DNA from: an uncultured Clostridia bacterium
Lineage (GTDB): Bacteria > Bacillota > Clostridia > UMGS1883
Assembly (NCBI GenBank): GCA_934476455.1
Contig: CAKSNY010000005.1
Span: 31,455 to 95,454, forward strand
Reading direction: 5' to 3'
Length of the DNA: 64,000 nt
This document shows positions 36,392 to 60,385 of this stretch, in pieces. How positions within the stretch are numbered: position 1 is the first letter of the stretch; every line of letters begins with the position of its first letter. A program made the position numbers and the translations under genes. The notes below the pieces were generated by a model. It had not been told where the DNA came from and searched no databases. It was given only the letters and a program-made list of their open reading frames with translations.

Positions 36392-39300
36392 TTATTTTGT
36401 TAAAAGCGCGGCAGCCTCGCCTGCGGTTATAAACCGCTTCGGATAGAAAAACCCGTTCTCGCCTTTTAAAATTTTGCCCTTTGAAAGCTCTTTTACAGCT
36501 TCTTTGGCATAATCTTTTATGCTTTCACCGTCAGCGTAGCCGTATGCGCCCCCTGCCGGATATATTTCGTAAAGCGGGTCTTGTTTTATCATCCTGTACA
36601 TCATTACCGCTGCCTCCTCACGCGTGATAAAGCCGTCCTTTTGTTCTTTTACAACGCCCATATCCATTGCCTTTTTAATAAAATCGCCGTCATACGAAAC
36701 GTCAAACACCGACAAAAGCGTCTTTATAAATTCGGCGCGCGTCAAGGGTAAATCAAGGTCGTTTAAAAACGCGCTTCCGTCCTCAAGCCTTCCGTTTTCA
36801 AAAAGGCTTTTCACCGCATAAAACGCCCAGTGTCCGTTATCCTTTATCGGGAAAATCGGTCTTTCGCCGCTTTGGGCGCTTTTTACGATTTCGGCAAGCT
36901 TAAAATACGTTTTCTCTTTTCCGGAAACTTTTTTTGGTATATCCGCTTTTGACCCCTCTATTTCCACGCCGCTTCCGCCGTTATTGTATATGTGAAGCTT
37001 GCCGGAGGTTTTAACGGCGTCCTCCGTATCAAGGTAATCATACAGCTTTTCACCGTTTACAAAAAGCGTTATGCGCACACCGCCGCCCTCTGTAACGGTG
37101 CCGAACTCTATCTCGCAGGACTCGCCGTTTTTTATATACTTGTTTTCCGTTTCAAAAAAGAACCTCTTTGCGCCGTTAAACCTTTGCAGCTCTATTACGT
37201 TTTCCTTTACGAGGAAAATGTATTCGCGCGTGTTCCACGGCTCTGTGGTATTTGCCGCCGAGCGCAGCCCAATGCTTGTGTAGCCGCCCGGAGAAATAAA
37301 AAACCGTGCGCGCATTTTTAAAACGGTGTTTTGCTTTATGCTTCCGTTAAAGCCGTAGCTTCCGTCGTTTCGGCATACTGCGGTGCCGCCGCTTAAGGCG
37401 GTGTTTTTGCTCCACATTTCGCCCTGTTTTATAAAATCTTCTATATTTATGTATTCGGGGTTTGTGCTGTTTTCAAAAACGGTAACGGCATTTCTTACGT
37501 TTTCAAGCGCATTTTCCAAAGCCTTGTTTGTTTTTGTCGGCTTTAAAAGAATTTCCTGTGCTTTTTTCATTTCCCTCTCCAGCGGCAGATGCGCACCCGC
37601 GATAAGCTCGCTCGTGTTTTCGCTTTCCGGCAGATTTTGATATATCTCACGCACATTTGAAAGAAAGGCATAAAGCTTTTCTTCGCTGAGCGCAGTGTCA
37701 TCTTTTGCGGCAGTTGTAAACGTGAAAAATCCGCCGTCGGAAAATCTTTTGTTTTCATCTTTGTAAAGATAAGACGAGGCGATTGCCTCCACACGCCAGT
37801 AATATGTTGTTTCCCCGAAACTTAAGTTGCGGAAACGCCTGTAGGTGTCGTATAAAACATCGTCGTAAACAATGTCTGTAAAGGCGCTGTCACGCGCCAC
37901 GGTAAGGCGGTACTTGTCCGCGCCGGAAATATCCTCCCACGACAATACAACGTCGCCCGCGTCCACACCCGTTTCGCCGTTTGCGGGGGATATTAAAGAA
38001 AACTGCTTAAGCTTTGCTTCTGTTTCGCCCTCTATACCGTATTGTTCTCTGTTAATTTCGGGAAGCTTACCCTCCTCCCCCTTTGACAGAGCAAGGTTGT
38101 TTTCAATCGTACCCGTTTTTTGTGCAATACCGCTTGTAATGTCAAACTTACCGCCGAGGCTTACATTGTTTTTTACAACATTTCCGCGCGGCGCTAAAAT
38201 ATAATCGCCCTTTAAAATGTCTCGCAAATAAGGATATTTTGTGTTGTAATATTCGTTATCCGGCGTATAATCGCGAAACATATAAAGCTCAAACATTTCC
38301 TTTGATTTCGGATAAAGCGACCTGTAATCCTCTTCAAGACGTCCGGCATTATACATATCAAGCGCCTTTTTGCTGTGGGAAAGCGCCTCCTCATCGGAGG
38401 AATTGTCTATGTTAAACAAATATACGCTTCTGCCCAAAATGTTTAAAAATATGTTGTTTTCAACATCGCAGTACTGCGCCGAATGAAGCGTTATTCCCGT
38501 TGTCAGGTTTTCAAACAGATTATCGTAAACCGAAACGCCCGTCATATAATCATCGCAGTAAATTGCGCTTCTTCCGCTTTTTCCCGTCATTTTAAAATCG
38601 TGAAAATAATTGTTTCTTATAACGTTGCCGCCGTTTGTCCAGCTGCGGCCTGCGTACAGCGCGCCCGCGTCGCCCGTTTCCGTAACGGCGTCGTAAATAT
38701 CGTTATATTCAATTATGTTGTCGTTTCCCATAAAGCGTATTACATAGTGCGGCGTGTTGTGTATTCTGTTGTGCGAAACAACGTCGCCCACGCCCAAAAG
38801 CCCTATCGCCTCGCAATACCGTTTTCCGATTACGGCAAAGCGCTCCATATGGTTGTTTGTGATAATATTTTTGCTCGGCGAAAGCGTTTTTTTGTCGCCG
38901 CCCGTTATAAGCACACATCCTTTTCCGATGTCGTGCATATAGTTTTTTGAAATCGTATTTTCTTTCCCGTTTTTAATGTAAACCGCCTGCTGACCTATGT
39001 TTTGAAATTCGCACTCTGTTACGGTGTTTTCGTTTGAATTTTCCATAACCACGCCGCAGCCGCACGTTCCCTCAAATATAATATTTTTAAAAGTAACGCG
39101 TGCGGCGCCGCTTAATAAAAACAAAGGCTCTGTGCTTGCCGTAAACTCGGCGTCCGCCGTGTTAAGCGGATAAACGTAAAGCACGCCGCTTTCACGGTCG
39201 AGATACCATTCGCCCGGGCTGTCAAGCTCCTCCAAAAGGTTTATAAAGCGCACCTCGCCGCCGTCGGCTATACCGTGAACGGTTTGCGCCGCAGTTTCAA

Positions 39301-40000
39301 AACGGCTGTTTTTAAGATCCGCCGTTTTTATTGTAAAGGTTTCGTCCGCCCAGTCAAAATTAAAATTGCCGTAAGCATAAAAATCCTTTGCACCCTCCCA
39401 GCGCATCGGACGCGCCTCGTCAATTTCAAAAAGATAGCCTTCTCCGGAGGATGCAGTGTTTTTTATCTTTGTAAAGGCCTTGTTCGGCCATTCGGCAAGG
39501 GTTTGCATTTTCCCGTTTTGTATAAGCAGCGGCGAAGAAGGCGTTTCCATTTTGTGGCGCTCGACACGCCGCACTGCGCCGAAATCTTCTATTCCGTATT
39601 TTGAAAGGGCTGCTGCACGCACCTTGCCTCGCGCGTTTTCGGGAAGTCTTTTTAAAACGTCCTTGTCCGTAACTGCGGAAAACGCTTCTTTCGGGATATT
39701 TTGGGTCATTGTTACATATGCACCCTCCTCCCCCGTTATATTTATCGGAAGGGCGTTATTTTCTATCTTCACGGTGTCTTTAAGGCGATGCGTGCCGCTT
39801 AAAAGTACAATATCGTGCTGCACGCCGCCCTTTTGTGATAATTCTATTGCACGCTCTATGTTTTTTACCGGCAAAGCGCGCGTCCCGGGGTTTTTGTCGT
39901 TTCCGTCCGGTGAAACATATACTTCTCCGCTTTGGGCAAAGCACACCGCCGCCGAAAGAAGCATAATTACCGCCGATAAAAATACAGTTAATTTTTTCAT
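36392..40000 (-). CDS. Secreted right-handed beta-helix protein (pectate-lyase-fold), plus an FN3-like domain, a LamG-like domain and C-terminal SLH anchor (about 1202 aa).
   Basis: ATG 40000 gives MKKLTVFLSAVIMLLSAAVCFA. Parallel beta-helix repeat signatures recur (NNHMERF, VSHNRIHNTPHYVIRFMGNDNIIEYNDIYD, GNVIRNNYFHD, GVSVYDNLFEN). The FN3-like segment is LISPANGETGVDAGDVVLSWEDISGADKYRL. The C-terminal SLH repeats include LTRAEFIKTLLSVF, ITREEAAVMMYRMI and ITAGEAAALLTK. Confidence 0.8.
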   Translation of the reverse strand: MKKLTVFLSAVIMLLSAAVCFAQSGEVYVSPDGNDKNPGTRALPVKNIERAIELSQKGGVQHDIVLLSGTHRLKDTVKIENNALPINITGEEGAYVTMTQNIPKEAFSAVTDKDVLKRLPENARGKVRAAALSKYGIEDFGAVRRVERHKMETPSSPLLIQNGKMQTLAEWPNKAFTKIKNTASSGEGYLFEIDEARPMRWEGAKDFYAYGNFNFDWADETFTIKTADLKNSRFETAAQTVHGIADGGEVRFINLLEELDSPGEWYLDRESGVLYVYPLNTADAEFTASTEPLFLLSGAARVTFKNIIFEGTCGCGVVMENSNENTVTECEFQNIGQQAVYIKNGKENTISKNYMHDIGKGCVLITGGDKKTLSPSKNIITNNHMERFAVIGKRYCEAIGLLGVGDVVSHNRIHNTPHYVIRFMGNDNIIEYNDIYDAVTETGDAGALYAGRSWTNGGNVIRNNYFHDFKMTGKSGRSAIYCDDYMTGVSVYDNLFENLTTGITLHSAQYCDVENNIFLNILGRSVYLFNIDNSSDEEALSHSKKALDMYNAGRLEEDYRSLYPKSKEMFELYMFRDYTPDNEYYNTKYPYLRDILKGDYILAPRGNVVKNNVSLGGKFDITSGIAQKTGTIENNLALSKGEEGKLPEINREQYGIEGETEAKLKQFSLISPANGETGVDAGDVVLSWEDISGADKYRLTVARDSAFTDIVYDDVLYDTYRRFRNLSFGETTYYWRVEAIASSYLYKDENKRFSDGGFFTFTTAAKDDTALSEEKLYAFLSNVREIYQNLPESENTSELIAGAHLPLEREMKKAQEILLKPTKTNKALENALENVRNAVTVFENSTNPEYINIEDFIKQGEMWSKNTALSGGTAVCRNDGSYGFNGSIKQNTVLKMRARFFISPGGYTSIGLRSAANTTEPWNTREYIFLVKENVIELQRFNGAKRFFFETENKYIKNGESCEIEFGTVTEGGGVRITLFVNGEKLYDYLDTEDAVKTSGKLHIYNNGGSGVEIEGSKADIPKKVSGKEKTYFKLAEIVKSAQSGERPIFPIKDNGHWAFYAVKSLFENGRLEDGSAFLNDLDLPLTRAEFIKTLLSVFDVSYDGDFIKKAMDMGVVKEQKDGFITREEAAVMMYRMIKQDPLYEIYPAGGAYGYADGESIKDYAKEAVKELSKGKILKGENGFFYPKRFITAGEAAALLTK

Positions 40001-40008
40001 TTTCACAC

Positions 40009-41985
40009 CTACCCTATCACAAGTATTTCGTGGTTTAAAAGCTTCGGCACGGTAAATTGCAGCACGCCGTTTTCATATGTAAAGTCTGTATTTCCCTTTT
40101 GCGTGTGCGAATAAACGTATTCGGGGCGCTTGTCTGCTTTAAGGCGTACTTTTACGTTGTAAAGCGGAACAATGTCTTCTATAATTTCCGTATTTACGCC
40201 GCGCAAAACAGGCTGCGCATAAAGAAGCTGCAATATTTTTCTGCCGTCGCACTTTTCTGAAAGGCTTACTATGCCGCCCGCGGGCAAATCCGTTTCAAGC
40301 GCTTTTTCGTTTCCCAGCAAAGCGTCCAGTGCATAATGCACAATCTCTTTTGATACAATCGACCCGTTTTTTCTGTAATCTTTAAATATTTCCCACGGGA
40401 TGAAAACGGTTTTATCTGTTTTGATTATACCGTCCTCGGCGCTTTTCGGGTTTGCCGGCGCATGCTTGTGCGACGAAAAATGAAGCGCCGTTCTGTTAAA
40501 ATACGGGTTTACCCTGTGCGCTGTACATTCCCCGTGCGTTTTTTTAACCGCATAGCCCTGTTCGTACATAACAAAATCGCTTTCGCCCAGGCTTTTAAGC
40601 GGAAACAGCGGGTGTATGTAGTCGGGTCTGTAAGGATTTTCTCCCAAAAACTCTACTCCGAAAAATTCGGGCAGCTTTCCTTCAAAAAGTGCGCTTTTTC
40701 CCGTGGCAAGCACCTTTCCGCCGCCCGATACGTAATCTGAAAGCTTTTTGTAAAGCGCGGCGTCAAGCTCTATTGTGTCGGGCAAAACAATCAGCTTGTA
40801 CAAATTAAAATCGGCGTATGTGTCTATCACGTTAAAAAGGTATTTCCCCTCGTGCAAAATCCTCAGCGCGCCCTCATCCTGCGCATTTGCCATTATATCC
40901 ATATCGCCTGAAAACGCCGTTTTCTGATAGTAGCTGTCAATTGCCTCCGCAGATAAAAGCGCTATATCCGCTATGGGGCGTGTTTCCTTTATGTATTGCT
41001 CTTTTTCCTCCAGCTCGCTGTATGCCGCGCCTATAAGCTTGTAGGTTGCAGCGTCCGCTTTTCCGGACGGGTGCAGCTGGTCGCCCACGGATGATGCAGC
41101 GCCGTATACGCAGTTTAGCGCAACCTCGTACCTCAGTGCGTTCGGGTGTTTAAAGCCGCCGTTTTCGCCCCACGCCGTGTGAAATTTGCCCGTCATCCCG
41201 AGGTAATCCACACCGAGCGTACGCACATATGCCGCAGAAAGCGGGAAATGCTCGTACCCGTAGTCGCCCGTTGGCAGGCTTTCAAGCTCGCAGTGGGAAT
41301 TTGTGCCCGCAATGTCACGTCTGCCGCGTATAACATGCCCTCCGTTATGAAAAACGGGGAAATCTTTTTTGTATTTATCCACGGCGCTGCGTACGGCACG
41401 GGTATAGTTTATGTAAACCTCCTGCGCCAGCGCCGACGCGTTTTTATCATCATAAGGGTCAAGCCCGCGCCCGCGCATTGTGCGCACGCAGTTTTGGCAC
41501 CAGCACGGCACCACCCCCGCAATGTCAAGAAAAAGACCGTCAAAAGTAAATTTTTCCATAACCTCCTCTATCTGTCCGATAAGATAAGGAAGATACGGTG
41601 AATTAAAGCACATCCTGTGATACCCCGGCTCTGCAAAGCTGCGTGCCCAGGTTGTCTGCTCGTTTTTTGCGCGGATAAGCCATTCGGGGTGCCGCCGCGC
41701 CATCTTTTCGTCAAGCCCCGCCGAAATATAAATCCGGACCGCCGCGCCCGCCGCCCGTGCGGCGTCAATCTGTGCGCTTAAAAGGTCAAATTTTAAGTTA
41801 GGGTGCATCTCGCACTTTGTCGTCGGGTGATACGACCACCCGTGGTGGCATTTTGAAAAGAACGTTACGGAATCTATATGCCCCTCCTTAAGCGCCGCAA
41901 TAAAGCCCTCGCGGTCAAATTCTTCACCGATGCCGGGTATGTCCTCGCTTGTGTGAAAGTCAAGGTGCAGTTGTCTGAATTTCAA
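40009..41985 (-). CDS. Cytoplasmic TIM-barrel glycoside-hydrolase-like protein (GHL6 / beta-galactosidase-trimerisation-domain type), about 658 aa.
   Basis: TTG 41985 lies 7 nt after AAAGGAGAG and gives (M)KFRQLHLDFHTSEDIPGIG. There is no signal peptide. The 42054 start in the ORF track lacks an RBS. The family call is from memory of the LHLDFHT N-terminal signature and is tentative. Confidence 0.55.
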   Translation of the reverse strand: MKFRQLHLDFHTSEDIPGIGEEFDREGFIAALKEGHIDSVTFFSKCHHGWSYHPTTKCEMHPNLKFDLLSAQIDAARAAGAAVRIYISAGLDEKMARRHPEWLIRAKNEQTTWARSFAEPGYHRMCFNSPYLPYLIGQIEEVMEKFTFDGLFLDIAGVVPCWCQNCVRTMRGRGLDPYDDKNASALAQEVYINYTRAVRSAVDKYKKDFPVFHNGGHVIRGRRDIAGTNSHCELESLPTGDYGYEHFPLSAAYVRTLGVDYLGMTGKFHTAWGENGGFKHPNALRYEVALNCVYGAASSVGDQLHPSGKADAATYKLIGAAYSELEEKEQYIKETRPIADIALLSAEAIDSYYQKTAFSGDMDIMANAQDEGALRILHEGKYLFNVIDTYADFNLYKLIVLPDTIELDAALYKKLSDYVSGGGKVLATGKSALFEGKLPEFFGVEFLGENPYRPDYIHPLFPLKSLGESDFVMYEQGYAVKKTHGECTAHRVNPYFNRTALHFSSHKHAPANPKSAEDGIIKTDKTVFIPWEIFKDYRKNGSIVSKEIVHYALDALLGNEKALETDLPAGGIVSLSEKCDGRKILQLLYAQPVLRGVNTEIIEDIVPLYNVKVRLKADKRPEYVYSHTQKGNTDFTYENGVLQFTVPKLLNHEILVIG

Positions 41986-42091
41986 GCTAAACTCTCCTTT
42001 GTCTTTTACGTTTATGTAGTAAAAAAGGGGACATAAAGCGCCGCCTTGCGGCAATCCGAATGTCCCCCGTTTTTACATTTTAAATTGTCAT

Positions 42092-43525: not shown

Positions 43526-43539
43526 TTTTATTTCCTCCT

Positions 43540-46500: not shown

Positions 46501-46596
46501 CGCAAGCACCGTCTGTGTGCTTGCAAAAGACGGCACGGCAATAATTGCGGCTGTCATTACAAGCGCCGTAAAAATCGATAATAATTTTTTTACCAT
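43540..46596 (-). CDS. Secreted 1018-aa surface/binding protein with three related beta-sandwich modules and SbsA-type Ig-like domains. No catalytic or anchor motif is recognisable.
   Basis: Signal peptide MVKKLLSIFTALVMTAAIIAVPSFAST. Repeated modules include TYNISVTINVDGDSATYDTYSYVIDDGTQNYVGGPYALGHA and WYTIRISVNIDGDAKTVDTYSYKVTDGTNTYEGGPYALGQA. An Ig-like segment is LSVESTSVANNETDVDVSKTLSVTFDRAL. Confidence 0.8.
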   Translation of the reverse strand: MVKKLLSIFTALVMTAAIIAVPSFASTQTVLASQPLDSGAIYVAGADNPNSTFTYGPHSDSSSLVYSAEEKAQEMFYKGTGNSNVYYLRSANITGGKIPSGAVVSYKFKLKKVNAGVLYIPVSFYNGAKDINNVSKTVYIQDGVLYATRDNSGYNGNQVNQDDTTKEKICAVKPDVWYTVKMLVNYDQTGTNEATYKVYVTDGAKEYTSANTLKLGIPAMNWGFKNTKITSLDTIAVGYVTAKGIEGADDPGFGDVFMKDILIYTTDDTSEFESKTLYSTTLNYGSDVSYNNSNSGKFTFPWENGVSVAKGTSDKGTVAKTTSASNFGRIKNAAEGPDFTNTFNKGNYTVSADFKFNQLTDAVYAPITFQTNKSQGNYRYSAVNIVASNGKLYAWTRKDGINSQYSWTGHPGFDTAASGAYTYIADIDSTKTYNISVTINVDGDSATYDTYSYVIDDGTQNYVGGPYALGHALHYNASDQDSFNMTNITGINLGNAIAYKNSVTASVEMDNFKLDGVGTPLSVESTSVANNETDVDVSKTLSVTFDRALGDFSKELVTLTKDGAQVSTTNTLSEDKKTLKIVPQGGVLSGSANYVINIPKNVVDSKNVSVSAAKTISFTTAQAPDYIVYNDCAELPGTSNGYAQTGESGAITAVTEDTRTALKLVSNYGIDGNLTNIRYQNEKMTAGNYIIEGTFKMTEASAKYFPIAFVTDKGNEIYPYSYTKTVWAEDGALYAKTADFPSAISGKYYYPGKVKICDLDTNAWYTIRISVNIDGDAKTVDTYSYKVTDGTNTYEGGPYALGQAVNDYADSAYNMTKVSYVVLGAACKNTASSESAAVTFIDRFYAVKQTPMTAAASGKTITFSEAVEPRTLTSLTLTKGGVKYPFTYSLSQDKKTVTVNTKELLGDYTLTIPANVVSASNKALANPLTVTISETASAQVTKTTSKTGNIMVVTAVCKNTSSTAQTIKVAAKAGDAQAGVTKLFKAGEEKTFTMTLKTAADSAAVTAYAADGSVLASN

Positions 46597-52773: not shown

Positions 52774-52778
52774 CTGCC

Positions 52779-55700
52779 TTATTCAGTGACTGAATCGTAC
52801 AGTCTGCGTATAACTGCCGCTGCCTGCGCCCGTGTAAGCGTTTCCTTCGGGCAAAATGTTCCGTCCGGCATACCGTTTAAAAGCTTAAGCCCTGCTGCTG
52901 CCTTTACATCCTCCGCTGCCCATGCGCTTATATTTTCATCATCGTTAAAGCCGGCAGATTCAGCCGCCGCGCTCTTTCCTGCGGCACGGTATGTGCGCAT
53001 AAGCATTGCCGCCATTTCCTCACGCGTTACGCTGTCATTCGGGCGGAAGCTTTCGCCGTTTTGCACTATGCCGTTTTTAACAGCCGCCTTAAGTGCGCCC
53101 GTATACCATGCGTCGGGCGCTGTGTCGTTAAAGCTGTAGTCGGCTTCTCCGCTTTGGCGTGCGGAGCGCACCAGGAGAGCAACAAGCTCTGCACGGGTAA
53201 CGCCGCTTTCAGGCTCGAAAAGCTCCTTCGTTTTGCCGTTTACAATTCCCTTATTGTATAGGTAGGAAATATCCTCCTCTGCCCAATGTCCTTTAACGTC
53301 TGAAAAAGCAGTTTTTGCGCTGTTTATATCATCATTTTTTACGATTGACGGGCTGTAGCTTGTGCTTCCGCCGCCACCGCCGCCACCGCCCTGCGGCGGT
53401 GTGTAAACCGTTATCGCGTTAATTCTTAATATAAGGGCGTCCTTTCTCGGGCACTCGGGAAGAAGGGCTGCCGCCTCTCTCGCCTGTGCAATCAGTGCAG
53501 CCGTTCTTCCTGTTTCAGCCTCTGTGCACTTTGTAAGCGCATCGTTATAAATATCCGTTATATCCGTTATCACCACATCGTCAAGGTAAAAGCTGCCGTT
53601 CATTTTAAAGCCAAGCGTAAGCGTTCCGCTGCCCGGGCGGGCAAAATCTCCGTTAAACAAAGTCCATACGGAGGACGCAACGCTTTTATCGGAAATAATT
53701 TTTTCGCCGTTTTGCGTTTGCACTACATTTAAAACTCCGCCGTTTTCCTTCATTACATATCCCGACAAATGGTAAATATGGTCCTGCCTTATATAATCGT
53801 TTTCCAAAAGCGCTTCGGCTGAAACTGCGTAGCAGTTTTCTCCGCCGTGGCTTTTTTCACTTGTAACAGTGCCGCCCGTCCATTTTTGGTTTGAACCCTC
53901 AAATCCGGGGTTATCCGCCAAATTTGAAAGCTTTAAAACGGTTATGTCAAAGCTTATCTCCTTTGTTATTTCGCCCAGTGTAAGGGTGGCGGTAAGCCTT
54001 GCGTTTTTATTTTCAAACGCGTTTTGTGTAACCTCGCCCGTGTTTGAAATTACGCTTGTATCGGTGCTGTTCCATAAAACGTTTACGCTGTACGCCGCAT
54101 TTTCATATGTAACGGGAATATTATTTGCAAGCGGTTTCAAATTCTTTGTGACAGAGGTCTGTGCCTCGTCCGAAATGCTTTGCCATGTAATTTGTGCCGC
54201 AGCTGTATTAACTATTGCTTCTTCGTTTAAATACTCGCCCACTGCAACGGTTTTTCTTGCCGATTTTACAACCCCGTCATACTCGGCTACAGCTAAAAGC
54301 GTAAAGTCTCCTGTATCTGCGTTTTCGTCTATTGTTAAAAATTCACCGTCAACCGCCACGCCGCGCTGTGCGTTTTCGGCGTGCCATTCTACGCTTGCCG
54401 AAACGGTGCTTTCGCTGCGGTCGTACGATATTGCCGAAAGCTTAACGCGTTTTGTTCCGCTTTGCGGCTTTCTGAAAGAATCGGGGCATTTTATTTCAAC
54501 ACGGTTTAAAGAGTTAAACGTAATCGTTACATTATCTATATAGTAGGCAGGCTCTACACTGTTTCCGCTGTCAAAAATCCAGAAGGTGAAATCCTCGTCC
54601 GCATTGCAGATTTTTGTGTACGAAAGCGTTACCCATTCGCCGCTTTTTGCCGTTACCTCCGAAAGCTTTGTACCGTTTGCGTCCGAGCTTAGCATAAAGG
54701 TATGATTTTCACGCCCGTCCGGCAGCCTTAAATCTGCCGAAATTGTGTATCTTCTTCCTTTTTTAAGGCGAACCGTCTGCTGTATTCCCTGGTATCTTCC
54801 GCTTCTTCCGCTTATATACACGCCGTAGCTGTTGTCCTTTCCCTCGCCGGGCATTCTTCTTGCGGTTGCCCAGTTGGCATACCAGCTGCCCTTTGTTGTT
54901 CCTCTGTCTATAACGTCGCTTCCGTCAAAGCTTTGTTCAAAATCGCCGTTTATTATAAGTTCGTCACGCGCGCTTGTTATAAGGTTAAACGTTTTCGACG
55001 CGCTTGCCCCGTCATACTTTGCCGTTGCGGTAAGCGTTACGCGGTGTATTTGTGAATCGCTTGCCAAAAGTGTGCCGTCGTTTTTTATTATTGTTTCATC
55101 GGACGACTGCCACTCTATCACAGCGCCGTAACGCCCTACGGTGCGAAGCGAAAGATTTTTTGTAATTGCCTCTAAGCTTTCATCCGTAACGTCTGTGTTT
55201 GAAAGCGCTGCAATTTCTTTTTCCACAATTGATTGGGGCGAAATATACGGCGTTACCGAAATTTCTTTTGTCTGTGTTTTAGCTGTTCCCAAATCCGTTA
55301 CCTTAACGGTAAGCGTTATTGTTTTTGCGCTGCTTTCCTCCGTTACAAACCCTTCGTGGATATTAAGCACGCCGTTTTCTATGCTTACGCCGGCATTTTC
55401 CGCTTCTTCATCCACAGACCACTGCACTGCGCAGTCTGTTATGTCGCTGTTTCCATATCTTACGTTTACACTGTAATTTTCACTTTTTGCACCGCTTTGC
55501 GGCATAATCGCGCTGTCGGCGCCCAAAATATCAACCGTGCAATCCTTTATGTAATCGCTTGTTACGGTGTATTCGTCAAGGTAAAACGTGTTTTGCACAC
55601 CGGAGGCGTCTATTATCATAAATCTAAAGCCTGTCAGTTCGCTGCTCGGTATATACTTAACCTCTGCCCGCGTCCACTGTCCGCTCTTTGCGCTCACGCT

Positions 55701-56891
55701 TCCGAGCCGCCTGTAGCTTTCGCTCGGAAGTACAATATTCATCGTATGGTCTGCATCGCCGTCGGGCAGACGAATGTAAAAGAAAAATTTATACGGTATG
55801 CCCTTTTTAAGGTTCACCCTTTGCATAACCGACATTGAGTTTGCATTTCTTCCCGAAATTTTAAGGTAGTAGTCTCCGCGCCGTGCCGCTATGCTCTCGT
55901 TTGACATAACGCGTGTAACCGTACCCGGCGACCACCAGCCCTCCCATGTTTCGCCCAGGGCGCCGAGTTCGTTTTCAAACGAGCCGTTTATACACAGGTT
56001 TGCTGCGGGGTCTGTAACCTCCTGTGCTGAGAAAGGCTCTATTATTACAGCCTTTGTCTGCTTTTTGGAAGCTCCGAAGTCCGTTGCCTCTACGCTTACA
56101 TAAACGGTTTTTTCGCCGCTTTCCTCGGTTACAAAGCCCTCGGGAACGTTAAGCGTGCCGTCTTCTATGCTTACGCCCGCGTTTTCCGCACCTTCATCCA
56201 CAGACCACGAAATATCATATCCCTCGGGCGCGTCCGCACCCTTGTACTTAACGCTTTTTGTATAGTCCATTGTCAAATCGCCCGAAAGCGGCATTTTCAC
56301 AATCTCATCGCCGGAAATGCTTATCACGCAGTCGTTTATGTATTCGCTTGTAACGATGTAGTCGTCCATATAGTACGCACTTAAAACAGGTGTGGAAGCA
56401 TCCATCAGCATAAGCTTAAACCCCGTCTTGTCCTCTGCCGGGGTATATTTTCCTGTCGCTTCAACCCATTCGCCGCTTTTAAGCGTCACGGTGCAAATCT
56501 CTTTGTAGCTTTCCGAAGGAATTACAAGCTTCATACTCTTTTCCTCCGCACCGTCCGGAAGGCGCAGCTTTATGCTGAATTTATACTCTATTCCCTTCTT
56601 CAGGTCAACTGGCTGCTCCAGCCCCTGGTAGGCTGCGCTTCTGTCTGCAACATAAACGCCGTAACTTCCGCCGAAGCCCTCGCCCTCTTTTCTTGTGGCG
56701 CTTGCCCAGTTGGCATACCAGCCGCCCTTCGTTTCACCGCGCGGGATATAGTTTGCCCCGTCAAACGTTTCTTCAAAGGAGCCGTTTGTTATCAGGTTTT
56801 TCGGATTTGCGGCAAGCGCGCCGTGCACTGCCGCAAAAGAAAGCAGCCCTGCAAGCGCTGCCGTCTTCACCGCAAAAAATCTTTTTCCCAT
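52779..56891 (-). CDS. Giant secreted protein (about 1370 aa): 4 CBM4/9/22-like jelly-roll modules interleaved with Ig-like modules, a Gly8 linker and 3 C-terminal SLH repeats.
   Basis: ATG 56891 lies 8 nt after GGAGGG and gives MGKRFFAVKTAALAGLLSFAAVHGALA. CBM-type openings recur: NLITNGSFEE, NLCINGSFEN, ELIINGDFEQ, NLADNPGFEG. The SLH repeats are FSDVKGHWAEEDISYLYNKGIVNG...VTRAELVALL, FNDTAPDAWYTGALKAAVKNGIV...VTREEMAAML and FNDDENISAWAAEDVKAAAGLKLLNG...LTRAQAAAVI. Confidence 0.85.
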   Translation of the reverse strand: MGKRFFAVKTAALAGLLSFAAVHGALAANPKNLITNGSFEETFDGANYIPRGETKGGWYANWASATRKEGEGFGGSYGVYVADRSAAYQGLEQPVDLKKGIEYKFSIKLRLPDGAEEKSMKLVIPSESYKEICTVTLKSGEWVEATGKYTPAEDKTGFKLMLMDASTPVLSAYYMDDYIVTSEYINDCVISISGDEIVKMPLSGDLTMDYTKSVKYKGADAPEGYDISWSVDEGAENAGVSIEDGTLNVPEGFVTEESGEKTVYVSVEATDFGASKKQTKAVIIEPFSAQEVTDPAANLCINGSFENELGALGETWEGWWSPGTVTRVMSNESIAARRGDYYLKISGRNANSMSVMQRVNLKKGIPYKFFFYIRLPDGDADHTMNIVLPSESYRRLGSVSAKSGQWTRAEVKYIPSSELTGFRFMIIDASGVQNTFYLDEYTVTSDYIKDCTVDILGADSAIMPQSGAKSENYSVNVRYGNSDITDCAVQWSVDEEAENAGVSIENGVLNIHEGFVTEESSAKTITLTVKVTDLGTAKTQTKEISVTPYISPQSIVEKEIAALSNTDVTDESLEAITKNLSLRTVGRYGAVIEWQSSDETIIKNDGTLLASDSQIHRVTLTATAKYDGASASKTFNLITSARDELIINGDFEQSFDGSDVIDRGTTKGSWYANWATARRMPGEGKDNSYGVYISGRSGRYQGIQQTVRLKKGRRYTISADLRLPDGRENHTFMLSSDANGTKLSEVTAKSGEWVTLSYTKICNADEDFTFWIFDSGNSVEPAYYIDNVTITFNSLNRVEIKCPDSFRKPQSGTKRVKLSAISYDRSESTVSASVEWHAENAQRGVAVDGEFLTIDENADTGDFTLLAVAEYDGVVKSARKTVAVGEYLNEEAIVNTAAAQITWQSISDEAQTSVTKNLKPLANNIPVTYENAAYSVNVLWNSTDTSVISNTGEVTQNAFENKNARLTATLTLGEITKEISFDITVLKLSNLADNPGFEGSNQKWTGGTVTSEKSHGGENCYAVSAEALLENDYIRQDHIYHLSGYVMKENGGVLNVVQTQNGEKIISDKSVASSVWTLFNGDFARPGSGTLTLGFKMNGSFYLDDVVITDITDIYNDALTKCTEAETGRTAALIAQAREAAALLPECPRKDALILRINAITVYTPPQGGGGGGGGSTSYSPSIVKNDDINSAKTAFSDVKGHWAEEDISYLYNKGIVNGKTKELFEPESGVTRAELVALLVRSARQSGEADYSFNDTAPDAWYTGALKAAVKNGIVQNGESFRPNDSVTREEMAAMLMRTYRAAGKSAAAESAGFNDDENISAWAAEDVKAAAGLKLLNGMPDGTFCPKETLTRAQAAAVIRRLYDSVTE

Positions 56892-56971: not shown

Positions 56972-57021
56972 GGTTTAAATAGCGGTTTTTTGAGGTTTAA
57001 ATTTATACATAGGGGTTTAAA
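56972..57021. repeat. Three direct GGTTTAAA repeats in the divergent control region of locus B.
   Basis: GGTTTAAA occurs at 56972-56979, 56994-57001 and 57014-57021, with spacings of 22 and 20 bp. The repeats lie between the giant-gene start (56891) and the DMT/regulator promoter. Confidence 0.5.
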
Positions 57022-57139: not shown

Positions 57140-57173
57140 TGTAGTATCGAATTTTATGTTTGGAGAATTTATT

Positions 57174-58103
57174 ATGCACACAAAAAAAGCGCCGGCATAC
57201 CTGGCGTCTGTAATTCGTTCGGCAATATACGGCAGCTCTGTTCTTTTTACGGGACGGCTGCTTCAAACCGTAGACGGTTTTGATGTTCTGGCTCTCAGAT
57301 TTTTTATTACCGCGGCGGCGTTTCTTATATTGGGGGCATTTAAGGTTGTGGACCTCGGCTTTTTGAAAAAGAAAGAGGTTTTACTGCTTATTCCCACGGC
57401 TCTTTTCGAGCCTGTGCTTTATTTTATTTTTGAAACGTTCGGCATAGCCGGCACCACGGCTATTGTTGCGGGGCTGATATTTGCCACAACCTCGGTTTTT
57501 ACAATGCTTTTTGAAACGCTTATTTTAGGCGAGCGTACAACGTCTTTGCAAAAAGGGTTTATGTTTTTGCGTATTTCAGGCGCCGTAATTGTTGTTTTCG
57601 CGGCGGGCGGCGGCGGAAAAAACACCGTTTTCGGTGTTGTATGCGCGTTTATGGCTGCGATAAGCGGGGCGCTTTTTTGCGTATTTTCCAGAAAATCGTC
57701 CGAAAACTTCGGTTCTATGGAAATTACGTGTTTTACCTCATTTTCGGGCTTTATCGTTTTTAATGCCATAAATGTTTGCCGCCATATATCAGGCGGCACG
57801 CTGCACGGCTATTTTTCGCCCCTTTTTGACCGCGAGCTTATCGTAGGATTTTTGTTTTTAAGCCTGCTTTCCTCAATATTGGCAACAGCGCTTAACAATT
57901 TTTCGTTCTCGCGTATTCAGGCGTCGCTTGTGTCTGCCCTGGGCGGTCTTTCAACGGTGTTTACTATGGCGCTGGGCGTTTTTGTAAACGGAGAAAAGCT
58001 TGGGCTTCTCCATTTAATAAGCGCGGCGCTGCTTATCCTGGGCGGTGTGGGAATGAATATGGTTCCCGATGCAAACTCCAAAGATAAAGAGGTGGCTGTA
58101 TGA
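57174..58103 (+). CDS. EamA/DMT-superfamily membrane transporter.
   Basis: About 309 aa and 10 TM, with two EamA-like halves. ATG 57174 lies 9 nt after GGAG (the ORF track gives 57156). Its stop overlaps the regulator's start (ATGA at 58100-58103). Confidence 0.75.
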   Translation: MHTKKAPAYLASVIRSAIYGSSVLFTGRLLQTVDGFDVLALRFFITAAAFLILGAFKVVDLGFLKKKEVLLLIPTALFEPVLYFIFETFGIAGTTAIVAGLIFATTSVFTMLFETLILGERTTSLQKGFMFLRISGAVIVVFAAGGGGKNTVFGVVCAFMAAISGALFCVFSRKSSENFGSMEITCFTSFSGFIVFNAINVCRHISGGTLHGYFSPLFDRELIVGFLFLSLLSSILATALNNFSFSRIQASLVSALGGLSTVFTMALGVFVNGEKLGLLHLISAALLILGGVGMNMVPDANSKDKEVAV

Positions 58104-60385
58104 AAAACTTAAAGCTGAAAAATTCAAAATATCTGACAGGGCTTTTCAAGGTTATTTCCGTTTCGACAGTTGTTCTTATAGCTATTTTGTCCACCATATT
58201 TTACATAAGCGCGCAGCACTATATAGAACGCGCATTGTATAATTCTTTTTTCGACGAATTTAAAAGAACGGAATCCGTGCTCGAAAGCCTGACAGAGGAT
58301 ATGCGCACACACCTTACCTATCTTCAGCAAACCGCGCAGGTTCAAACGCTTATGAATTCCGAAGAAATTTCGCGTTCGGCAGAGCGCTCGGCGCTCAGCG
58401 TGCTTTCGGCATACCGAAATTCAAACTCCATTATTCATTCGATATACGTATACAACAGCCGCCTTGACCGTTACTATATCGCAGGCAGCCAAAACCGCAC
58501 ACATAATAATAAAGATTTTTACGACAGCGAAATAACGGATATTATAAAAGGCGGCACCATAACGGATTTTTCGCAGTCTGTTTCGCGCAGTATTCCGGAG
58601 GACGAGTATTCCCCCGACAAAAAAATAAACGTGTTTACGTATATTCTGCCCGAAAACTATTCGCAAAGTCAGTATGAAAAAAGCTATATTGTAATTAACG
58701 TGCTTACGGAGGATATACTTAAGTTTTTGTTTAACAATTCTCACGACTCGCAGTCGCAAATGTTTTTCTACGACAGCGAAAAAAGCGCCGTTATTTCATA
58801 CGAGGGGCAAAACTCTTACAAAAAAATCGGCGATAAAATATCAAAAAAGGCAGAAAAAAGCGGCTATTTCATATATCGGCAGTCACACGGCGAAAAATAC
58901 CTTGTAATGTATCAAATGCTGCAATCGCCCGAGTGGGCGCTCGTAAACCTTACGCCGTATTCCACCGTTTCCGAGCAGATAGACCGCTTCCGTATTACCA
59001 CGCTTATTATTCTTTTGACAATGCTTGCCGTAACGCTTCTTTTTTGTTTTTACACCTCCAAAACGGTTTACAAGCCCATAAGCAGCGTTTTTGAAAAAAT
59101 ACAGAAAATGACGGCGGATTACTCGCGCAGCAGCTTCAGCGATATATCAGACTCTGTCGACGCCCTGCGCGACGAAATGGCACACCTTAACAGCTTCAGG
59201 CAAAAAAATTCTTATATAATAAAAAACGAAACGTTAAAAAGCTTTATTTTTACGGACAGTGAAAGCGAAATACCGGTGCTTAATTCCGTAAAGGATAACA
59301 CTGAATCCGTCGCGCTTGTGCTTTTTAAGATTGACGGCTATAACGACTATACGGAAAAATACTCCTATTCGGACCGTATGCTTTACAAATACTCTTTTAT
59401 AAATATTATAGAGGAGCTTGTGGGCGAGCATTTTAAATGCGATTTTATAGACGTATCGGACGAAGCAATTACAGGAATTGTAAAATGCGACCCCAAAAAA
59501 GACAAATCTGCTTTAAAAACCGCTTTTCTTCGTATAAAACAAGCTATAGAGGTTAATTTCGGCATTACGCTTTCCTGCTTTGTAAGCACAAAGGTTAATC
59601 TTCCGTCCAACCTTTCGGATATTTACGAAAATCTTTACGGGATTTCGCTTTACCGCTTCCATTACGGCAAGGGCTGTATACTGTTTTCCGATTCCTTCGA
59701 CGAGGCGGCGTTTGCCCCGTCACCGCTTAACACAGACGATATTAAGCCGCTGAGCAACGAAATACGTCTTCATCATTACGAGCAGAGCCTAAGCGCGCTT
59801 AAGGGCATTATTAAGCAAATATATTCCCTAAACTACACAGCCGCAAAAATTTCTGTATATCATTTGTTTATTGAAATTTTTTCCGCGCTTACCTCCATTG
59901 AAAAAAACTTTAACCATTCGCTTGAAATTAACTACACGATGATGTTTGACAAAATAACCAATCAAACGGAAACGCTTTACGAAATCGAAACCGAGCTTGT
60001 AACGCTTTTAGACTGCGCCTTCAACGCAATTAACGTTAAAAAAGCAAACAAGGTACATTACATTATAGAAAGCGTGTGCGACTATGTTGCAAATAACTAC
60101 AGCAATGTAAATTTGTGTTCCACTATGATTGCCGATTCCATAAAGCTTTCAACACGTTACCTTACAAAAATCTTTTCGGAAAATATGTCGGTATCTTTGC
60201 CGAATTACATTACAAATTACAGGATAGAAAAATCGAAAGAGCTTCTTTTAAATACCGACCTGTCCGTTAAAGAAATCGTCGAGCGTATCGGCTGGATAAA
60301 CCTTAAATATTTTTACACAATATTCAAAAAAACAACCGGCGTAACGCCGGGCGATTTCCGCTCCTCGGGCGGAAAGGAAAAATAA
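58100..60385 (+). CDS. Membrane-spanning AraC-family one-component regulator (YesS-like, 761 aa). Paralog in architecture to 13290-15533.
   Basis: TM segments are VISVSTVVLIAILSTIFYISA and ITTLIILLTMLAVTLLFCFYT. The C-terminal AraC HTH is YSNVNLCSTMIADSIKLSTRYLTKIFSE...YRIEKSKELLLNTDLSVKEIVERIGWINLKYFYTIFKKTTGVTPGDFR. Confidence 0.85.
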   Translation: MKNLKLKNSKYLTGLFKVISVSTVVLIAILSTIFYISAQHYIERALYNSFFDEFKRTESVLESLTEDMRTHLTYLQQTAQVQTLMNSEEISRSAERSALSVLSAYRNSNSIIHSIYVYNSRLDRYYIAGSQNRTHNNKDFYDSEITDIIKGGTITDFSQSVSRSIPEDEYSPDKKINVFTYILPENYSQSQYEKSYIVINVLTEDILKFLFNNSHDSQSQMFFYDSEKSAVISYEGQNSYKKIGDKISKKAEKSGYFIYRQSHGEKYLVMYQMLQSPEWALVNLTPYSTVSEQIDRFRITTLIILLTMLAVTLLFCFYTSKTVYKPISSVFEKIQKMTADYSRSSFSDISDSVDALRDEMAHLNSFRQKNSYIIKNETLKSFIFTDSESEIPVLNSVKDNTESVALVLFKIDGYNDYTEKYSYSDRMLYKYSFINIIEELVGEHFKCDFIDVSDEAITGIVKCDPKKDKSALKTAFLRIKQAIEVNFGITLSCFVSTKVNLPSNLSDIYENLYGISLYRFHYGKGCILFSDSFDEAAFAPSPLNTDDIKPLSNEIRLHHYEQSLSALKGIIKQIYSLNYTAAKISVYHLFIEIFSALTSIEKNFNHSLEINYTMMFDKITNQTETLYEIETELVTLLDCAFNAINVKKANKVHYIIESVCDYVANNYSNVNLCSTMIADSIKLSTRYLTKIFSENMSVSLPNYITNYRIEKSKELLLNTDLSVKEIVERIGWINLKYFYTIFKKTTGVTPGDFRSSGGKEK

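Follow-up and report, generated by a model that had tools for sequence, protein, structure and literature searches.

Gene content and organization of the locus

A co-directional cluster of nine genes (locus B) occupies positions 36392-56891 of the minus strand in the window, the whole 64-kb stretch of DNA analysed here (Table 1). The open reading frames lie where a preliminary description of this DNA had placed them, but they number nine and not ten, nine being also the sum of that description's own list; with its start sites the intergenic gaps measure 5, 23, 14, 38, 24, 14, 37 and 2 nt, in agreement with the range of 2-38 nt it had given. The gene order, from the divergent AraC gene through g1 to g8, is repeated on two contigs of other uncultured Clostridia (L001 and L002) at 41-91% protein identity, and the cluster is therefore more than a chance assembly. 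Identity to the L001 orthologues amounts to 86-91% for the importer and 41-59% for the surface proteins, as would be anticipated if a single ligand is imported while the exposed proteins evolve fast. The cluster is a real operon with which an uncultured Gram-positive bacterium harvests sugar, and the earlier reading of a co-directional locus for SLH-anchored glycan capture, degradation and import is supported.

Table 1. Positions of the genes and sequence elements of locus B and its flank
Feature	Position	Strand	Description
g1	52779..56891	-	1370-aa secreted non-catalytic surface protein
g2	49942..52773	-	943-aa wall-anchored protein, undescribed family
g3	48992..49918	-	ABC permease, LplB/UgpA-like; BPD_transp_1 4e-11
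g4	48093..48977	-	ABC permease, LplC/MalG-like; BPD_transp_1 6e-6
g5	46621..48054	-	Lipoprotein solute-binding protein; SBP_bac_1 + DUF3502
g6	43540..46596	-	1018-aa secreted protein, no SLH; Big_5 5e-14
g7	42092..43525	-	477-aa secreted O-acetyl esterase (predicted); Lipase_GDSL_2 8e-20
Hairpin + U6, g7-g8	42021..42068	-	GGGGACAU...AUGUCCCC then U6
g8	40009..41985 (re-assigned; 40009-42054 as called)	-	658-aa cytoplasmic GH151 alpha-L-fucosidase (predicted)
g9	36392..40006	-	1204-aa surface protein; Beta_helix 1e-19
Three direct repeats ATTT(T)AAACC	56972..57021	-	20-22 bp apart; at -129, -109 and -87 from g1 start
EamA/DMT transporter	57156..58103	+	EamA 2e-27; upstream of and overlapping the AraC gene
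AraC-family regulator	58100..60385	+	761-aa one-component, membrane-spanning; HTH_18 6e-18; divergent from the operon

Surface proteins

Three products had been described as wall-anchored, and SLH triads are indeed found in g1, g2 and g9. The first gene, preceded by a GGAGG ribosome-binding site 8 nt ahead of its ATG, encodes three repeats of a CBM_4_9 and an Ig-like module, detectable as internal repeats of the sequence, followed by two aBig_2 domains and one further CBM-like module, the fourth; a Gly-rich linker then leads to a C-terminal SLH triad that matches the Sap SLH structure (1e-18). The Pfam matches are strong throughout (CBM_4_9 3e-40 over three stretches, aBig_2 9e-22, three SLH 1e-35), and identity to the L001 orthologue is 46%. 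The core of about 350 aa that marks the canonical partner family beside other g2-like genes is absent from g1.

In the second protein, encoded 5 nt downstream, a signal peptide and an acidic disordered stretch precede the N-terminal SLH triad (approximately residues 77-256), and the remaining 680 aa or so are all-beta in structure. Pfam recognizes only the SLH domains, and the beta part has no Pfam or PDB match. An AlphaFold2 model (pLDDT 78) retrieved by Foldseek only relatives of its SLH part (SpaA-SLH and Sap, TM-score about 0.7) and nothing credible for residues 260-943. The profile of the g2 family recovers at least 150 full-length clusters at 50% identity, and all 52 members compared match only SLH, plus F5/8-C in six; some family members bear CBM32-type or Golvesin_C modules. 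These results agree with the earlier view that the SLH protein of about 900 aa is unassigned and recurrent. Its claimed recurrence in locus A, a separate utilisation locus of the window, holds in part: an 890-aa g2 paralogue (25% identity over 723 aa, E 1e-25) does lie beside an aBig_2 giant there, but the order of the two is reversed and the C-terminus of the giant falls beyond the window edge.

The architecture of g2, in which a long series of beta domains comes after an N-terminal SLH triad, is shared with the S-layer proteins Sap and EA1, and g1 and g2 might accordingly be general components of the envelope or S-layer whose genes only happen to neighbour catabolic genes; the g2-like proteins would then be S-layer paralogues that take no part in glycan capture. 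A weak Foldseek match of g2 to the Sap lattice (9g93, probability 0.10) points the same way, as do tandem arrays of three to four g2-like genes with no visible enzymes (L057, L097 and L110) and two loci (L007 and L011) in which a partner or a clear CAZyme context is missing. We nevertheless consider this quite unlikely. Genes of the g2 family are found within operons that combine ABC importers with CAZymes of many differing specificities, the two paralogues of this window belong to separate utilisation loci, and the CBM32-type or Golvesin_C modules named above occur on some family members. Moreover, g2-like genes are often translationally coupled to the gene of a C-terminal-SLH protein, with spacings to CBM-bearing SLH proteins as tight as +5, -8, -1, -1 and -4 nt. 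The domains and position of g1 and g2 suggest that they would serve in glycan capture.

Internal repeats in g6 reveal three copies of a beta domain of about 200 aa; the protein also has two Big_5 domains and, at its C-terminus, a small beta domain. With only three homologues among 5.8 billion proteins, g6 is, as far as sequence comparison reaches, restricted to this lineage. Its AlphaFold2 model is poor (pLDDT 52), and the Foldseek matches of this model to ConA/LamG-like jelly rolls (neurexin LNS, PL20 and PL14, TM-score about 0.5) are only suggestive of tandem jelly-roll-like domains. The role that we propose for g6 below would follow from domains and position, as for g1 and g2.

Importer and enzymes

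The permeases g3 (sugar permease matches in NCBIfam) and g4 (MalG/GlcU-like in NCBIfam) are each 91% identical to their L001 orthologues, and the binding protein g5, with the lipobox LAAFTGC, is 86% identical. Importers of this class usually have their ATPase encoded elsewhere. The nearest solved relative of g5 is the N-glycan binding protein SP0092/NgtS of S. pneumoniae (E 9e-47, full length), a level of homology that does not fix the ligand.

The esterase g7 comprises an SGNH domain, a CBM35-like lid domain and an extra C-terminal domain of about 90 aa. Residues 33-367 align with both domains of RiCE17/RiCEX (PDB 6HFZ, E 7e-21), and S42, N111 and D206/H209 of g7, read from the sequence, correspond to S41, N110 and D190/H193 of RiCEX. 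By this alignment g7 has the two-domain architecture of CE17 together with its catalytic triad. The target of CE17 is the axial 2-O-acetyl group of mannose. We found no evidence for CE12, and the solved structures matched include no rhamnogalacturonan acetylesterase.

The g8 product (Pfam GHL6 7e-29 and GH42M) aligns end to end with ALfuk2 (PDB 6TVK, E 1.9e-202), retains the catalytic D154 and E235 and the complementing His, and has no signal peptide that we could find in the sequence. This homology argues strongly for a GH151 alpha-L-fucosidase. The substrates of GH151 enzymes are aryl-fucosides and fucosyl disaccharides (PMC10154630), the latter limited to Fuc-GlcNAc and Fuc-a1,2-Gal, and g8 would therefore fit a final cytoplasmic step. 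Its start is better placed at the TTG at 41985, because a ribosome-binding site, AAAGGAGAG, lies 6 nt upstream, the product then opens with MKFRQLHLDFHTS, like Met1 of the solved homologue and the 659-aa L001 orthologue, and the catalytic residues are numbered D154/E235 exactly as in ALfuk2.

In g9 a parallel beta-helix (approximately residues 25-640) is followed by Fn3-like and LamG-like domains and a full C-terminal SLH triad (1059-1203; own HMM, E 2e-18). Searched against the PDB, the family profile of g9 matches 9rx2 (4.3e-71) and the GH141 fucosidase BT_1002 (5MQP, 2.7e-29), the latter strongly only over the N-terminal cap and insertion and weakly over the catalytic helix (domain E 0.92); the same search gave 3e-4 for RG lyase and 2.5e-4 for PL6 alginate lyase. 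Two invariant aspartates of g9, D446 and D486, are 40 residues apart, against 41 for D523 and D564 of BT_1002; in the alignment D446 falls on the Asp of the 5MQP stretch YDVAGVY, and the second Asp is not directly alignable. Two relatives, P0052 and P0120, are fused to a GH29 alpha-L-fucosidase, and GH141 now also holds endo-fucanases (PMC12786026). Homology makes g9 a GH141-related beta-helix protein, and its activity may be of the same type. We rejected assignment to pectate or RG lyases or to GH28, since the profile favours GH141. In the orthologous loci the place of g9 is taken by a different, 22%-identical beta-helix protein located elsewhere. No other enzyme of an established backbone-cleaving family is present in locus B. 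The products, said to be mostly unassignable, can in several cases be assigned (g5, g7, g8 and g9), and g1, g2 and g6 gave no such assignment; with the invariant Asp pair of g9, the secreted products lacking a catalytic motif drop from four of five to three (about 3300 aa).

The preliminary description had seen an overlap with the rhamnogalacturonan toolbox of Bacillus. On this view the locus would be related to that RG-I toolbox and would attack rhamnogalacturonan or pectin by means of an esterase, a beta-helix enzyme (lyase or hydrolase) and import of the LplABC type. Such parts are present: the transporter is of LplABC type with a DUF3502 binding protein, an SGNH esterase accompanies the beta-helix fold, there is a faint N-terminal match (residues 2-60 only) to the pectate lyase PelN (E 5e-4), BT_1002, a relative of g9, acts on RG-II, and the same window also contains, at a distance of 25 kb, a true pectin locus (PL2 and GH88/105). 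We regard this reading as highly improbable. The fucosidase is GH151, g7 matches CE17, and the g9 family sides with GH141 (3e-29) over the lyases; Pfam domain calls in locus B include no PL, GH28, GH105 or GH2/GH42, the PL, GH28 and GH105 genes of the window being in locus A; and the neighbours in the orthologous loci are GH3 and GH4 genes, not pectinases.

Regulation and transcript structure

The divergent membrane-spanning AraC gene and the EamA/DMT transporter are present as earlier described. In both L001 and L002 a 68%-identical orthologue of the regulator is likewise transcribed divergently from that of g1; the transporter gene was not found in these two loci and probably lies outside the system. 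Three of the seven occurrences of TTTAAACC in the window fall within the repeats upstream of g1, and related repeats, AWTTTRAACY, with the same spacing precede the g1 orthologues in L001 and L002, making the repeats a candidate operator for the AraC regulator.

With g8 starting at 41985, the g7-g8 gap widens to 106 nt. Contrary to the earlier statement that no internal terminator is visible in the cluster, this gap contains a strong hairpin (dG -30.4 kcal/mol, z -5.3, none of 200 shuffles as stable) followed by U6, with a hairpin and T5 at the equivalent position in L001. It is a candidate intrinsic terminator, attenuator or transcript-stabilising element. The positionally conserved hairpin, together with the lack of conservation of g9 at its position in orthologous loci, could mean that the nine genes form two unrelated units, a hairpin-ended g1-g7 for capture, import and deesterification and g8-g9 for hydrolysis of fucose glycans. 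We consider this quite unlikely: only about 30 nt separate the U-tract from the g8 ribosome-binding site, with no promoter-like site and no room for one, the g7-g8 linkage is conserved, the esterase gene being followed by that for GH151 in every orthologous locus seen, and g1-g7 alone would be left without any glycosidase.

Target glycan and proposed mechanism

We consider it reasonably probable that locus B is a Gram-positive polysaccharide-utilisation locus of SLH-bearing Clostridia directed at an O-acetylated glycan carrying alpha-L-fucose, because a GH151 enzyme (g8), a GH141-related protein with GH29-fused relatives (g9), the CE17 architecture of g7 and an NgtS-like binding protein (g5) coincide in it. 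We found no sulfatase, ENGase, mannosidase or fucose catabolic genes in locus B; the first absence counts against fucoidan, the second and third against N-glycans. The target might instead be a host or dietary glycoconjugate (fucosylated N-glycans, mucin-type or milk-type glycans) and not a structural polysaccharide, with g9 as an exo-fucosidase and the importer feeding small fucosyl-GlcNAc or Gal fragments to g8. The kinship of g5 with the pneumococcal N-glycan binder, the restricted disaccharide range of GH151, the mannose-linked acetyl groups targeted by CE17 and the origin of some related contigs in human-gut metagenomes all suit such a ligand. We still judge it unlikely, since neither the locus nor its orthologues hold an endo-beta-N-acetylglucosaminidase, mannosidase, sialidase, GH20 or GH95, the four-module CBM_4_9 array and the three-module jelly-roll protein suggest a polymeric ligand, and other related contigs come from bioreactor and fermentation metagenomes.

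For the O-acetylated, fucosylated glycan that we favour, the membrane AraC protein would sense a breakdown product and activate the promoter through the ATTTAAACC direct repeats. As their genes are 5 nt apart, g1 and g2 would be made in a fixed ratio, and their SLH triads would pin them to the pyruvylated wall polymer as a joint non-catalytic capture platform, to which secreted g6 might add binding capacity through its tandem jelly-roll-like modules. SLH-anchored g9 may act as endo-fucanase or exo-fucosidase, its GH141-type Asp pair cutting the glycan at the cell surface, and g7 would strip the O-acetyl groups. The oligosaccharides would be imported by g5 and g3/g4 with an ATPase encoded elsewhere, and cytoplasmic g8, as its strong homology indicates, would free L-fucose from small fucosyl-saccharides. 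The hairpin and U6 before g8 may lower or uncouple g8-g9 expression relative to g1-g7.

The surface layer had been thought to match no described Gram-positive system. The overall plan of the locus is the same as that of Paenibacillus sp. JDR-2 (Pjdr2 regulons) and relatives, in which intracellular GHs and divergent regulators accompany SLH and CBM surface proteins and the ABC importer encoded next to them (PMC4765114). The g2-like family and its frequent pairing with a C-terminal-SLH protein are the only features for which we found no description.

Organization of locus B

The minus-strand cluster called locus B consists of nine consecutive genes, g1 to g9 in transcription order, one fewer than the ten counted in the preliminary description; the domains listed there agree with the Pfam calls for all nine. 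With the start sites adopted in that description, the intergenic gaps are, as it had reported, short: 5, 23, 14, 38, 24, 14, 37 and 2 nt. An EamA transporter gene and a gene of the AraC family diverge from the cluster, and the sporulation gene yunB lies downstream, followed by a strong terminator. The SLH anchors ascribed to g1, g2 and g9 are all real, since residues 1059-1203 of g9 match an SLH HMM of our own, built from eight SLH triads, across nearly its full length (E 2e-18). Pfam and internal repeat analysis resolve g1 into three repeats of CBM_4_9 plus an Ig-like domain and a fourth CBM-like module, and its sequence identifies it as a predicted non-catalytic array. Cohesins and dockerins, the mark of a cellulosome-type assembly, have zero Pfam matches in the nine products. 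Rfam returns no riboswitch in locus B; its only matches, five tRNAs, lie in other parts of the window.

Features of locus B and of the remainder of the window, with amino acid identity to the orthologous locus on metagenomic contig L001
Feature	Window position (strand)	Length	Domains or description	Identity to L001
Locus B	36392-56891 (-)		nine genes
g1		1370 aa	3x CBM_4_9, 2x aBig_2, 3x SLH	46%
g2		943 aa	SLH only	59%
g3, g4		308, 294 aa	BPD_transp_1 permeases	90-91%
g5		477 aa	SBP_bac_1 + DUF3502; lipobox present	86%
g6		1018 aa	2x Big_5	41%, partial
g7		477 aa	GDSL (esterase)	61%
g8	TTG start at 41985	658 aa, corrected start (681 aa as first called)	GHL6 + Glyco_hydro_42M; no signal peptide	69%
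g9		1204 aa	Beta_helix/NosD, weak SLH
AraC-family gene		761 aa	divergent from locus B	68%
Direct repeats upstream of g1	56972-57021		ATTT(T)AAACC at -129, -109 and -87 from g1, 20-22 bp apart
g7-g8 spacer hairpin	42021-42068 (-)		stem followed by U6
Terminator after yunB	35331-35309
Metallo-beta-lactamase fold/Ada-type zinc-binding domain fusion	34227-35300 (-)	357 aa	flanked by FMN reductase and Mur ligase genes
Core-2/I-branching enzyme protein	60662-61552 (-)	296 aa	GT14-like "Branch"; 33% G+C; just past the AraC gene
Low-G+C block	~20000-28000		33-37% G+C against 43-49% elsewhere
tRNA cluster	28632-29092 (-)		five tRNAs, bordering the low-G+C block
Locus A	1-17514		second utilisation locus
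Locus A binding protein	11550-13211
Locus A AraC-like sensor	13290-15539	749 aa
Locus A permeases	15678-17514		two genes

Elsewhere in the window, the low-G+C block may be an island or an insertion. Locus A encodes a hydrolase of GH88/105, a PL2 pectate lyase of 1101 aa, a g2-like protein of 890 aa and, cut by the window edge, a giant protein of >1427 aa with seven aBig_2 domains and sialidase-like CBM domains.

Predicted enzymes and binding proteins

The cytoplasmic hydrolase g8 aligns end-to-end with ALfuk2 of Paenibacillus thiaminolyticus (PDB 6TVK; residues 24-680, numbered as first called, against 30-685; E 1.9e-202) and shares its three-domain layout of TIM barrel, GH42M-like domain and C-terminal beta domain. 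In ALfuk2 the nucleophile is D154, the acid/base is E235, and H503 is contributed by the neighbouring monomer (PMC10154630); all three alignment columns (Asp154, Glu235 and the complementing His503) are kept in g8. By family, g8 is thus a predicted GH151 alpha-L-fucosidase. GH151 enzymes cleave aryl-fucosides and fucosyl disaccharides and leave larger glycans uncut (PMC10154630), and this range of small substrates suits a final, cytoplasmic step for g8. We found no earlier description in the literature of a GH151 enzyme inside an SLH-type utilisation locus.

The N-terminal 720 aa of g9 belong to a widespread family of beta-helix proteins of ~670 aa (788 matches). A profile of 28 relatives, searched against the PDB, matches 9rx2 at E 4.3e-71 and, in three stretches, 5MQP (BT_1002, the founding GH141 alpha-L-fucosidase) at E 2.7e-29; lyases score 1e-4 or weaker. 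With BT_1002, g9 shares a parallel beta-helix, an N-terminal cap and an inserted beta-sandwich, although it is much closer to 9rx2, and unlike the GH141 enzymes BT_1002, Xyn141E and Wf141 it adds Fn3-like, LamG-like and SLH modules. The Pfam model GH141_M has no match in g9 and only sub-threshold matches in its relatives. Two aspartates, D446 and D486, are present in every one of the 28 relatives and lie 40 residues apart, as compared with 41 residues for the essential pair D523/D564 of BT_1002 (PMC12786026). D446 aligns with the Asp of YDVAGVY (5MQP SEQRES 528, presumed to be D523); the alignment ends before the second Asp. Like GH141, the relatives of g9 are tied to fucose, in their case by two natural proteins, P0052 (Alpha_L_fucos 4e-92) and P0120, in which a beta-helix of the g9 type is fused to a GH29 alpha-L-fucosidase domain. 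GH141 itself spans an exo-fucosidase acting on RG-II (BT_1002), a xylanase (Xyn141E) and endo-fucanases (Wf141) (PMC12786026). The structure 9rx2, to which the catalytic domain of g9 is closest among solved proteins, is deposited solely as a "parallel beta-helix repeat protein", and a literature search found no published function for it.

The secreted esterase g7 matches RiCE17 (RiCEX, PDB 6HFZ) of Roseburia intestinalis over residues 33-367 (32-360 of 378 in RiCE17, E 6.7e-21), so that the SGNH domain and the CBM35-like lid are both matched, as one unit. S42 (GGSIT), N111 (SVND) and D206-x-x-H209 of g7 are in place as read from the sequence, their counterparts in RiCEX being S41, the oxyanion-hole N110 and D190/H193. 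Architecture and catalytic residues therefore mark g7 as putatively CE17-like. It differs from RiCE17, an acetyl-mannan esterase that works after import and is encoded in a mannan locus, in being secreted, in carrying an additional C-terminal domain and in sitting in a fucosidase locus. The nearest solved relative of the binding protein g5 is the pneumococcal N-glycan binding protein SP0092/NgtS (E 9e-47, full length).

The 1018-aa secreted protein g6 is composed of three ~200-aa beta domains interleaved with its Big_5 domains; a search of 5.8 billion proteins gives it only three homologues. Its AF2 model, built from only 4 sequences, is poor (pLDDT 52); Foldseek matches this poor model to ConA/LamG-type jelly rolls, including the folds of PL14 and PL20 lyases, at TMt ~0.5, a likeness that may serve as a lead only. 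A docking domain common to g6 and g7 was rejected at the sequence level (local alignment of the C-terminal tails, score 27, z -0.5).

Transcript structure and candidate operator

The start of ALfuk2 aligns with residue 24 of g8 as first called. The sequence AAAGGAGAG, followed after 6 nt by TTG, opens a product beginning MKFRQLHLDFHTS, which has the same start as the 659-aa L001 orthologue and brings D154 and E235 into register with the numbering of ALfuk2. The corrected start widens the g7-g8 spacer to 106 nt. Contrary to the earlier impression that the cluster has no internal terminator, this spacer contains a strong hairpin, GGGGACAU...AUGUCCCC, followed by U6 (dG -30.4 kcal/mol, z -5.3; 0 of 200 shuffles fold as well). 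A different hairpin followed by T5 occupies the same place between esterase and GH151 genes in L001 (19770-19810), just before the ribosome-binding site; the position is kept, the sequence is not. The U-tract lies too close to the ribosome-binding site of g8 to leave space for a promoter; the hairpin would therefore either attenuate transcription within the cluster or form a stabilising end for the g1-g7 transcript, with transcription continuing into g8-g9 by read-through.

The three direct repeats upstream of g1 recur as AWTTTRAACY repeats, spaced by ~20 bp, ahead of the g1 orthologues in L001 (~6500-6545) and in a second metagenomic contig, L002 (~6480-6525), in spacers that have otherwise diverged. 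The octamer TTTAAACC occurs only seven times in the whole 64-kb window. A distance of about two helical turns is usual for the direct repeats bound by AraC-family activators; given this spacing, we infer that the ATTTAAACC repeats are a candidate operator of the conserved divergent AraC protein. All three spacers also retain a GTCAATTACCAAAA box.

Conservation of the locus

The gene order of locus B recurs in L001 and L002. Both contigs carry, in this order, a divergent AraC gene, a CBM_4_9/aBig_2/SLH protein, g2 (59% identity in either), two permeases, a binding protein with DUF3502, a Big_5 protein, a GDSL esterase and a GHL6 protein. Identity between the window and L001 follows a gradient, in which the importer is nearly fixed and the exposed proteins diverge. 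Neither contig has g9 at its position; another beta-helix protein (740 aa, F5/8-C plus beta-helix), 22% identical to g9, is encoded upstream of the AraC gene. The EamA gene is likewise absent from both and is therefore not counted in the system. A scan of a genome collection with the orthologue alignment returned only two metagenome-assembled genomes, one from an uncultured Clostridiales and the other from a Clostridia bacterium.

Relation to known utilisation systems and probable substrate

The reading with most support places locus B among Gram-positive utilisation loci such as those of Paenibacillus sp. JDR-2, whose regulons for xylan, beta-glucan and starch have similar SLH systems in Clostridium, Caldicellulosiruptor and Thermoanaerobacter (PMC4765114). 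In that plan, surface proteins with CBMs and triplicate SLH domains depolymerise the glycan near the wall, oligosaccharides enter by ABC import, and a cytoplasmic hydrolase follows (PMC4765114). Locus B likewise encodes CBM/SLH-triad surface proteins (g1, g2 and g9 carry the triads), an adjacent ABC importer with a lipoprotein binding protein (g3-g5), an intracellular glycoside hydrolase (g8) and a divergent regulator, an arrangement also kept in L001 and L002. The plan of the locus is thus a described one (PMC4765114), whereas the preliminary description had matched its surface layer with no described Gram-positive system. The two systems differ in that JDR-2 joins CBMs, catalytic module and SLH domains on one polypeptide, whereas locus B splits them among g1, g9 and the extra SLH protein g2; in the regulator, here a one-component membrane AraC; and in the enzymes, which here are GH141-like, CE17-like and GH151. 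For g2 and g6 no counterpart has been described in the JDR-2 system.

Taken together, the assignments of g8, g9, g7 and g5 point to an O-acetylated glycan bearing alpha-L-fucose as the probable substrate, and away from the Bacillus rhamnogalacturonan (Yes/Lpl) toolbox with which the locus had been linked. A rhamnogalacturonan lyase (PL11 or other), GH105, CE12 and GH28/GH42 are all absent from locus B, as is any other PL; the locus's sole common item with that toolbox is the LplABC-type importer; the pectin enzymes of the window, PL2 and GH88/105, are in locus A. Among fucose-bearing candidates, the absence of sulfatases argues against algal fucoidan and that of a xyloglucanase and a xylosidase against fucosylated xyloglucan. 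N-glycans, the ligands of the nearest solved relative of g5, are opposed as the main target by the absence of an ENGase and mannosidases. The matches of g9, g8 and g7 to GH141 (BT_1002), GH151 and CE17 also reduce the number of products held to be unassignable. On the whole, the original observations largely stand, and their interpretation stands in outline; it has had to be revised as to substrate class, the count of unassignable products, the terminator and the claim of an undescribed design.

The g2-like family and its partners

The AF2 model of g2 is usable (pLDDT 78) and contains a full SLH triad at residues ~77-256, which superposes on SpaA-SLH and Sap at TMt ~0.7. For the remaining 680 residues, all-beta in the model, Foldseek finds no credible match in the PDB. 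A beta-propeller was considered and rejected: the Foldseek matches to DDB1 have a probability of 0.1-0.35, TM <0.11 and rmsd ~30 A, and self-HHalign detects no blade-sized repeats, only weak ones of ~200 aa (probability <=39%).

A g2 profile searched against 1.8 billion cluster representatives (clusters at 50% identity) has at least 150 full-length matches; all matches listed have E <1e-165, and most are 840-1060 aa long. At E <= 1e-30 the number of proteins is 12,636, to be taken as a maximum, since an SLH triad by itself is enough for a good score. In all 52 of 52 diverse members the known Pfam domains are SLH, with F5/8 type C added in 6 and Golvesin_C in 2. A cluster look-up found no name for any member, and a literature search on SLH proteins of Monoglobus found nothing. 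Neighbouring genes differ widely from locus to locus, and very little DNA, if any, separates the g2-like gene from that of the upstream SLH protein.

Neighbours of g2-like genes and their junctions with the upstream partner gene (negative values denote overlaps; L numbers are metagenome contigs)
Locus or contig	Neighbours of the g2-like gene	Partner/g2-like junction
Locus B		+5 nt
Locus A	PL2, GH88/105
L001		-8 nt
L003	GH42, melibiase	-1 nt
L004, L005, L009	heparinase II/III-like lyases, GH20	+10 nt (L004), -1 nt (L005)
L010	GH10 xylanase
L012	ABC permeases	-4 nt

A metagenome sample collected by the third-SLH-repeat motif GGYPxGYLxVA yielded 55 non-redundant g2-like ORFs; it is biased by the motif, and its counts describe the sample only. 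The upstream gene is visible for 40 of these ORFs. Fourteen lie within 60 nt behind a protein on the same strand that ends in an SLH triad, three more lie behind such a protein at a greater distance, and four follow another g2-like gene. Ten downstream neighbours were scanned: two encode heparinase-like lyases, one each a GH2, a GH20, a BNR/sortilin + CBM96 protein, a GDSL esterase and a "stalk" (Cu_amine_oxidN1), and three have no Pfam match.

Many of the partners are proteins of ~560 aa with a common core of ~350 aa, and they constitute a second undescribed family. Its members, encoded directly upstream of g2-like genes, have an N-terminal core without Pfam match and a C-terminal SLH triad, and were observed in L004, L005, L009, L020, L035, L039, L065, L078, L098 and L101; the larger partners in L003 and L012 contain this core too. 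Membership of g1 in this family was rejected: the core HMM matches the L003 and L012 partners (1e-28 and 1e-22) and at E<0.01 misses g1, its L001 orthologue and the locus A giant. What links the pair of locus B to the canonical one is limited to the SLH triad at the partner's C-terminus and the position of the genes. In L057, L097, L110 and L030, three to four g2-like genes form tandem or convergent arrays with no partner gene between them, which suggests that the family also expands by itself.

In having an N-terminal SLH triad and a long multi-domain beta region, g2 resembles the S-layer proteins Sap and EA1 of B. anthracis and SpaA of P. alvei, and g2-like proteins could accordingly be S-layer paralogues. 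Outside the triad, however, there is no likeness to these proteins in sequence and none credible in fold. An S-layer protein is encoded by one highly expressed gene, whereas a genome carries several g2-like paralogues, placed in catabolic operons, which argues against a main S-layer protein. The likeness of g2 to the SusD/E/F proteins and surface glycan-binding proteins (SGBPs) of Bacteroidota is one of proposed function only, without homology: like SusD and the SGBPs, g2 is a locus-encoded, non-catalytic surface protein that varies with the substrate of the locus and adjoins importer genes, and it differs in being held in a monoderm envelope by an SLH anchor instead of a lipid anchor. We offer, tentatively and with more doubt than confidence, the proposal that g2-like proteins are a generic, unrecognised part of SLH-type utilisation loci in uncultured Clostridia, usually co-translated with a C-terminal-SLH protein, and that the two make up a capture or gating platform specific to each locus. 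Such a platform would present the glycan to surface enzymes and pass oligosaccharides to the ABC importer.

Biological significance

Fucose is carried by mucins, milk glycans, pectic side chains and algal and microbial fucans. Such glycans are a major carbon source in guts and digesters; little is known of their capture by uncultured Gram-positive anaerobes. Locus B offers a testable set of predicted enzymes: a surface enzyme resembling GH141, an esterase resembling CE17 and, together with its importer, a fucosidase of GH151. Further study is best directed at the g2-like family and at the way it pairs with proteins ending in SLH domains; the family is wall-anchored, has neither Pfam model nor structural relative, and is found in loci for many glycans. 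If its members are merely S-layer paralogues, locus B is an ordinary utilisation operon. If they bind or channel glycans, they would fill the Gram-positive gap of the SusD/SGBP concept and might include new CBM families; the two-protein platform, if real, would do for Gram-positive bacteria what the SusD/SGBP layer does for Bacteroidota, probably by means of new carbohydrate-binding folds.
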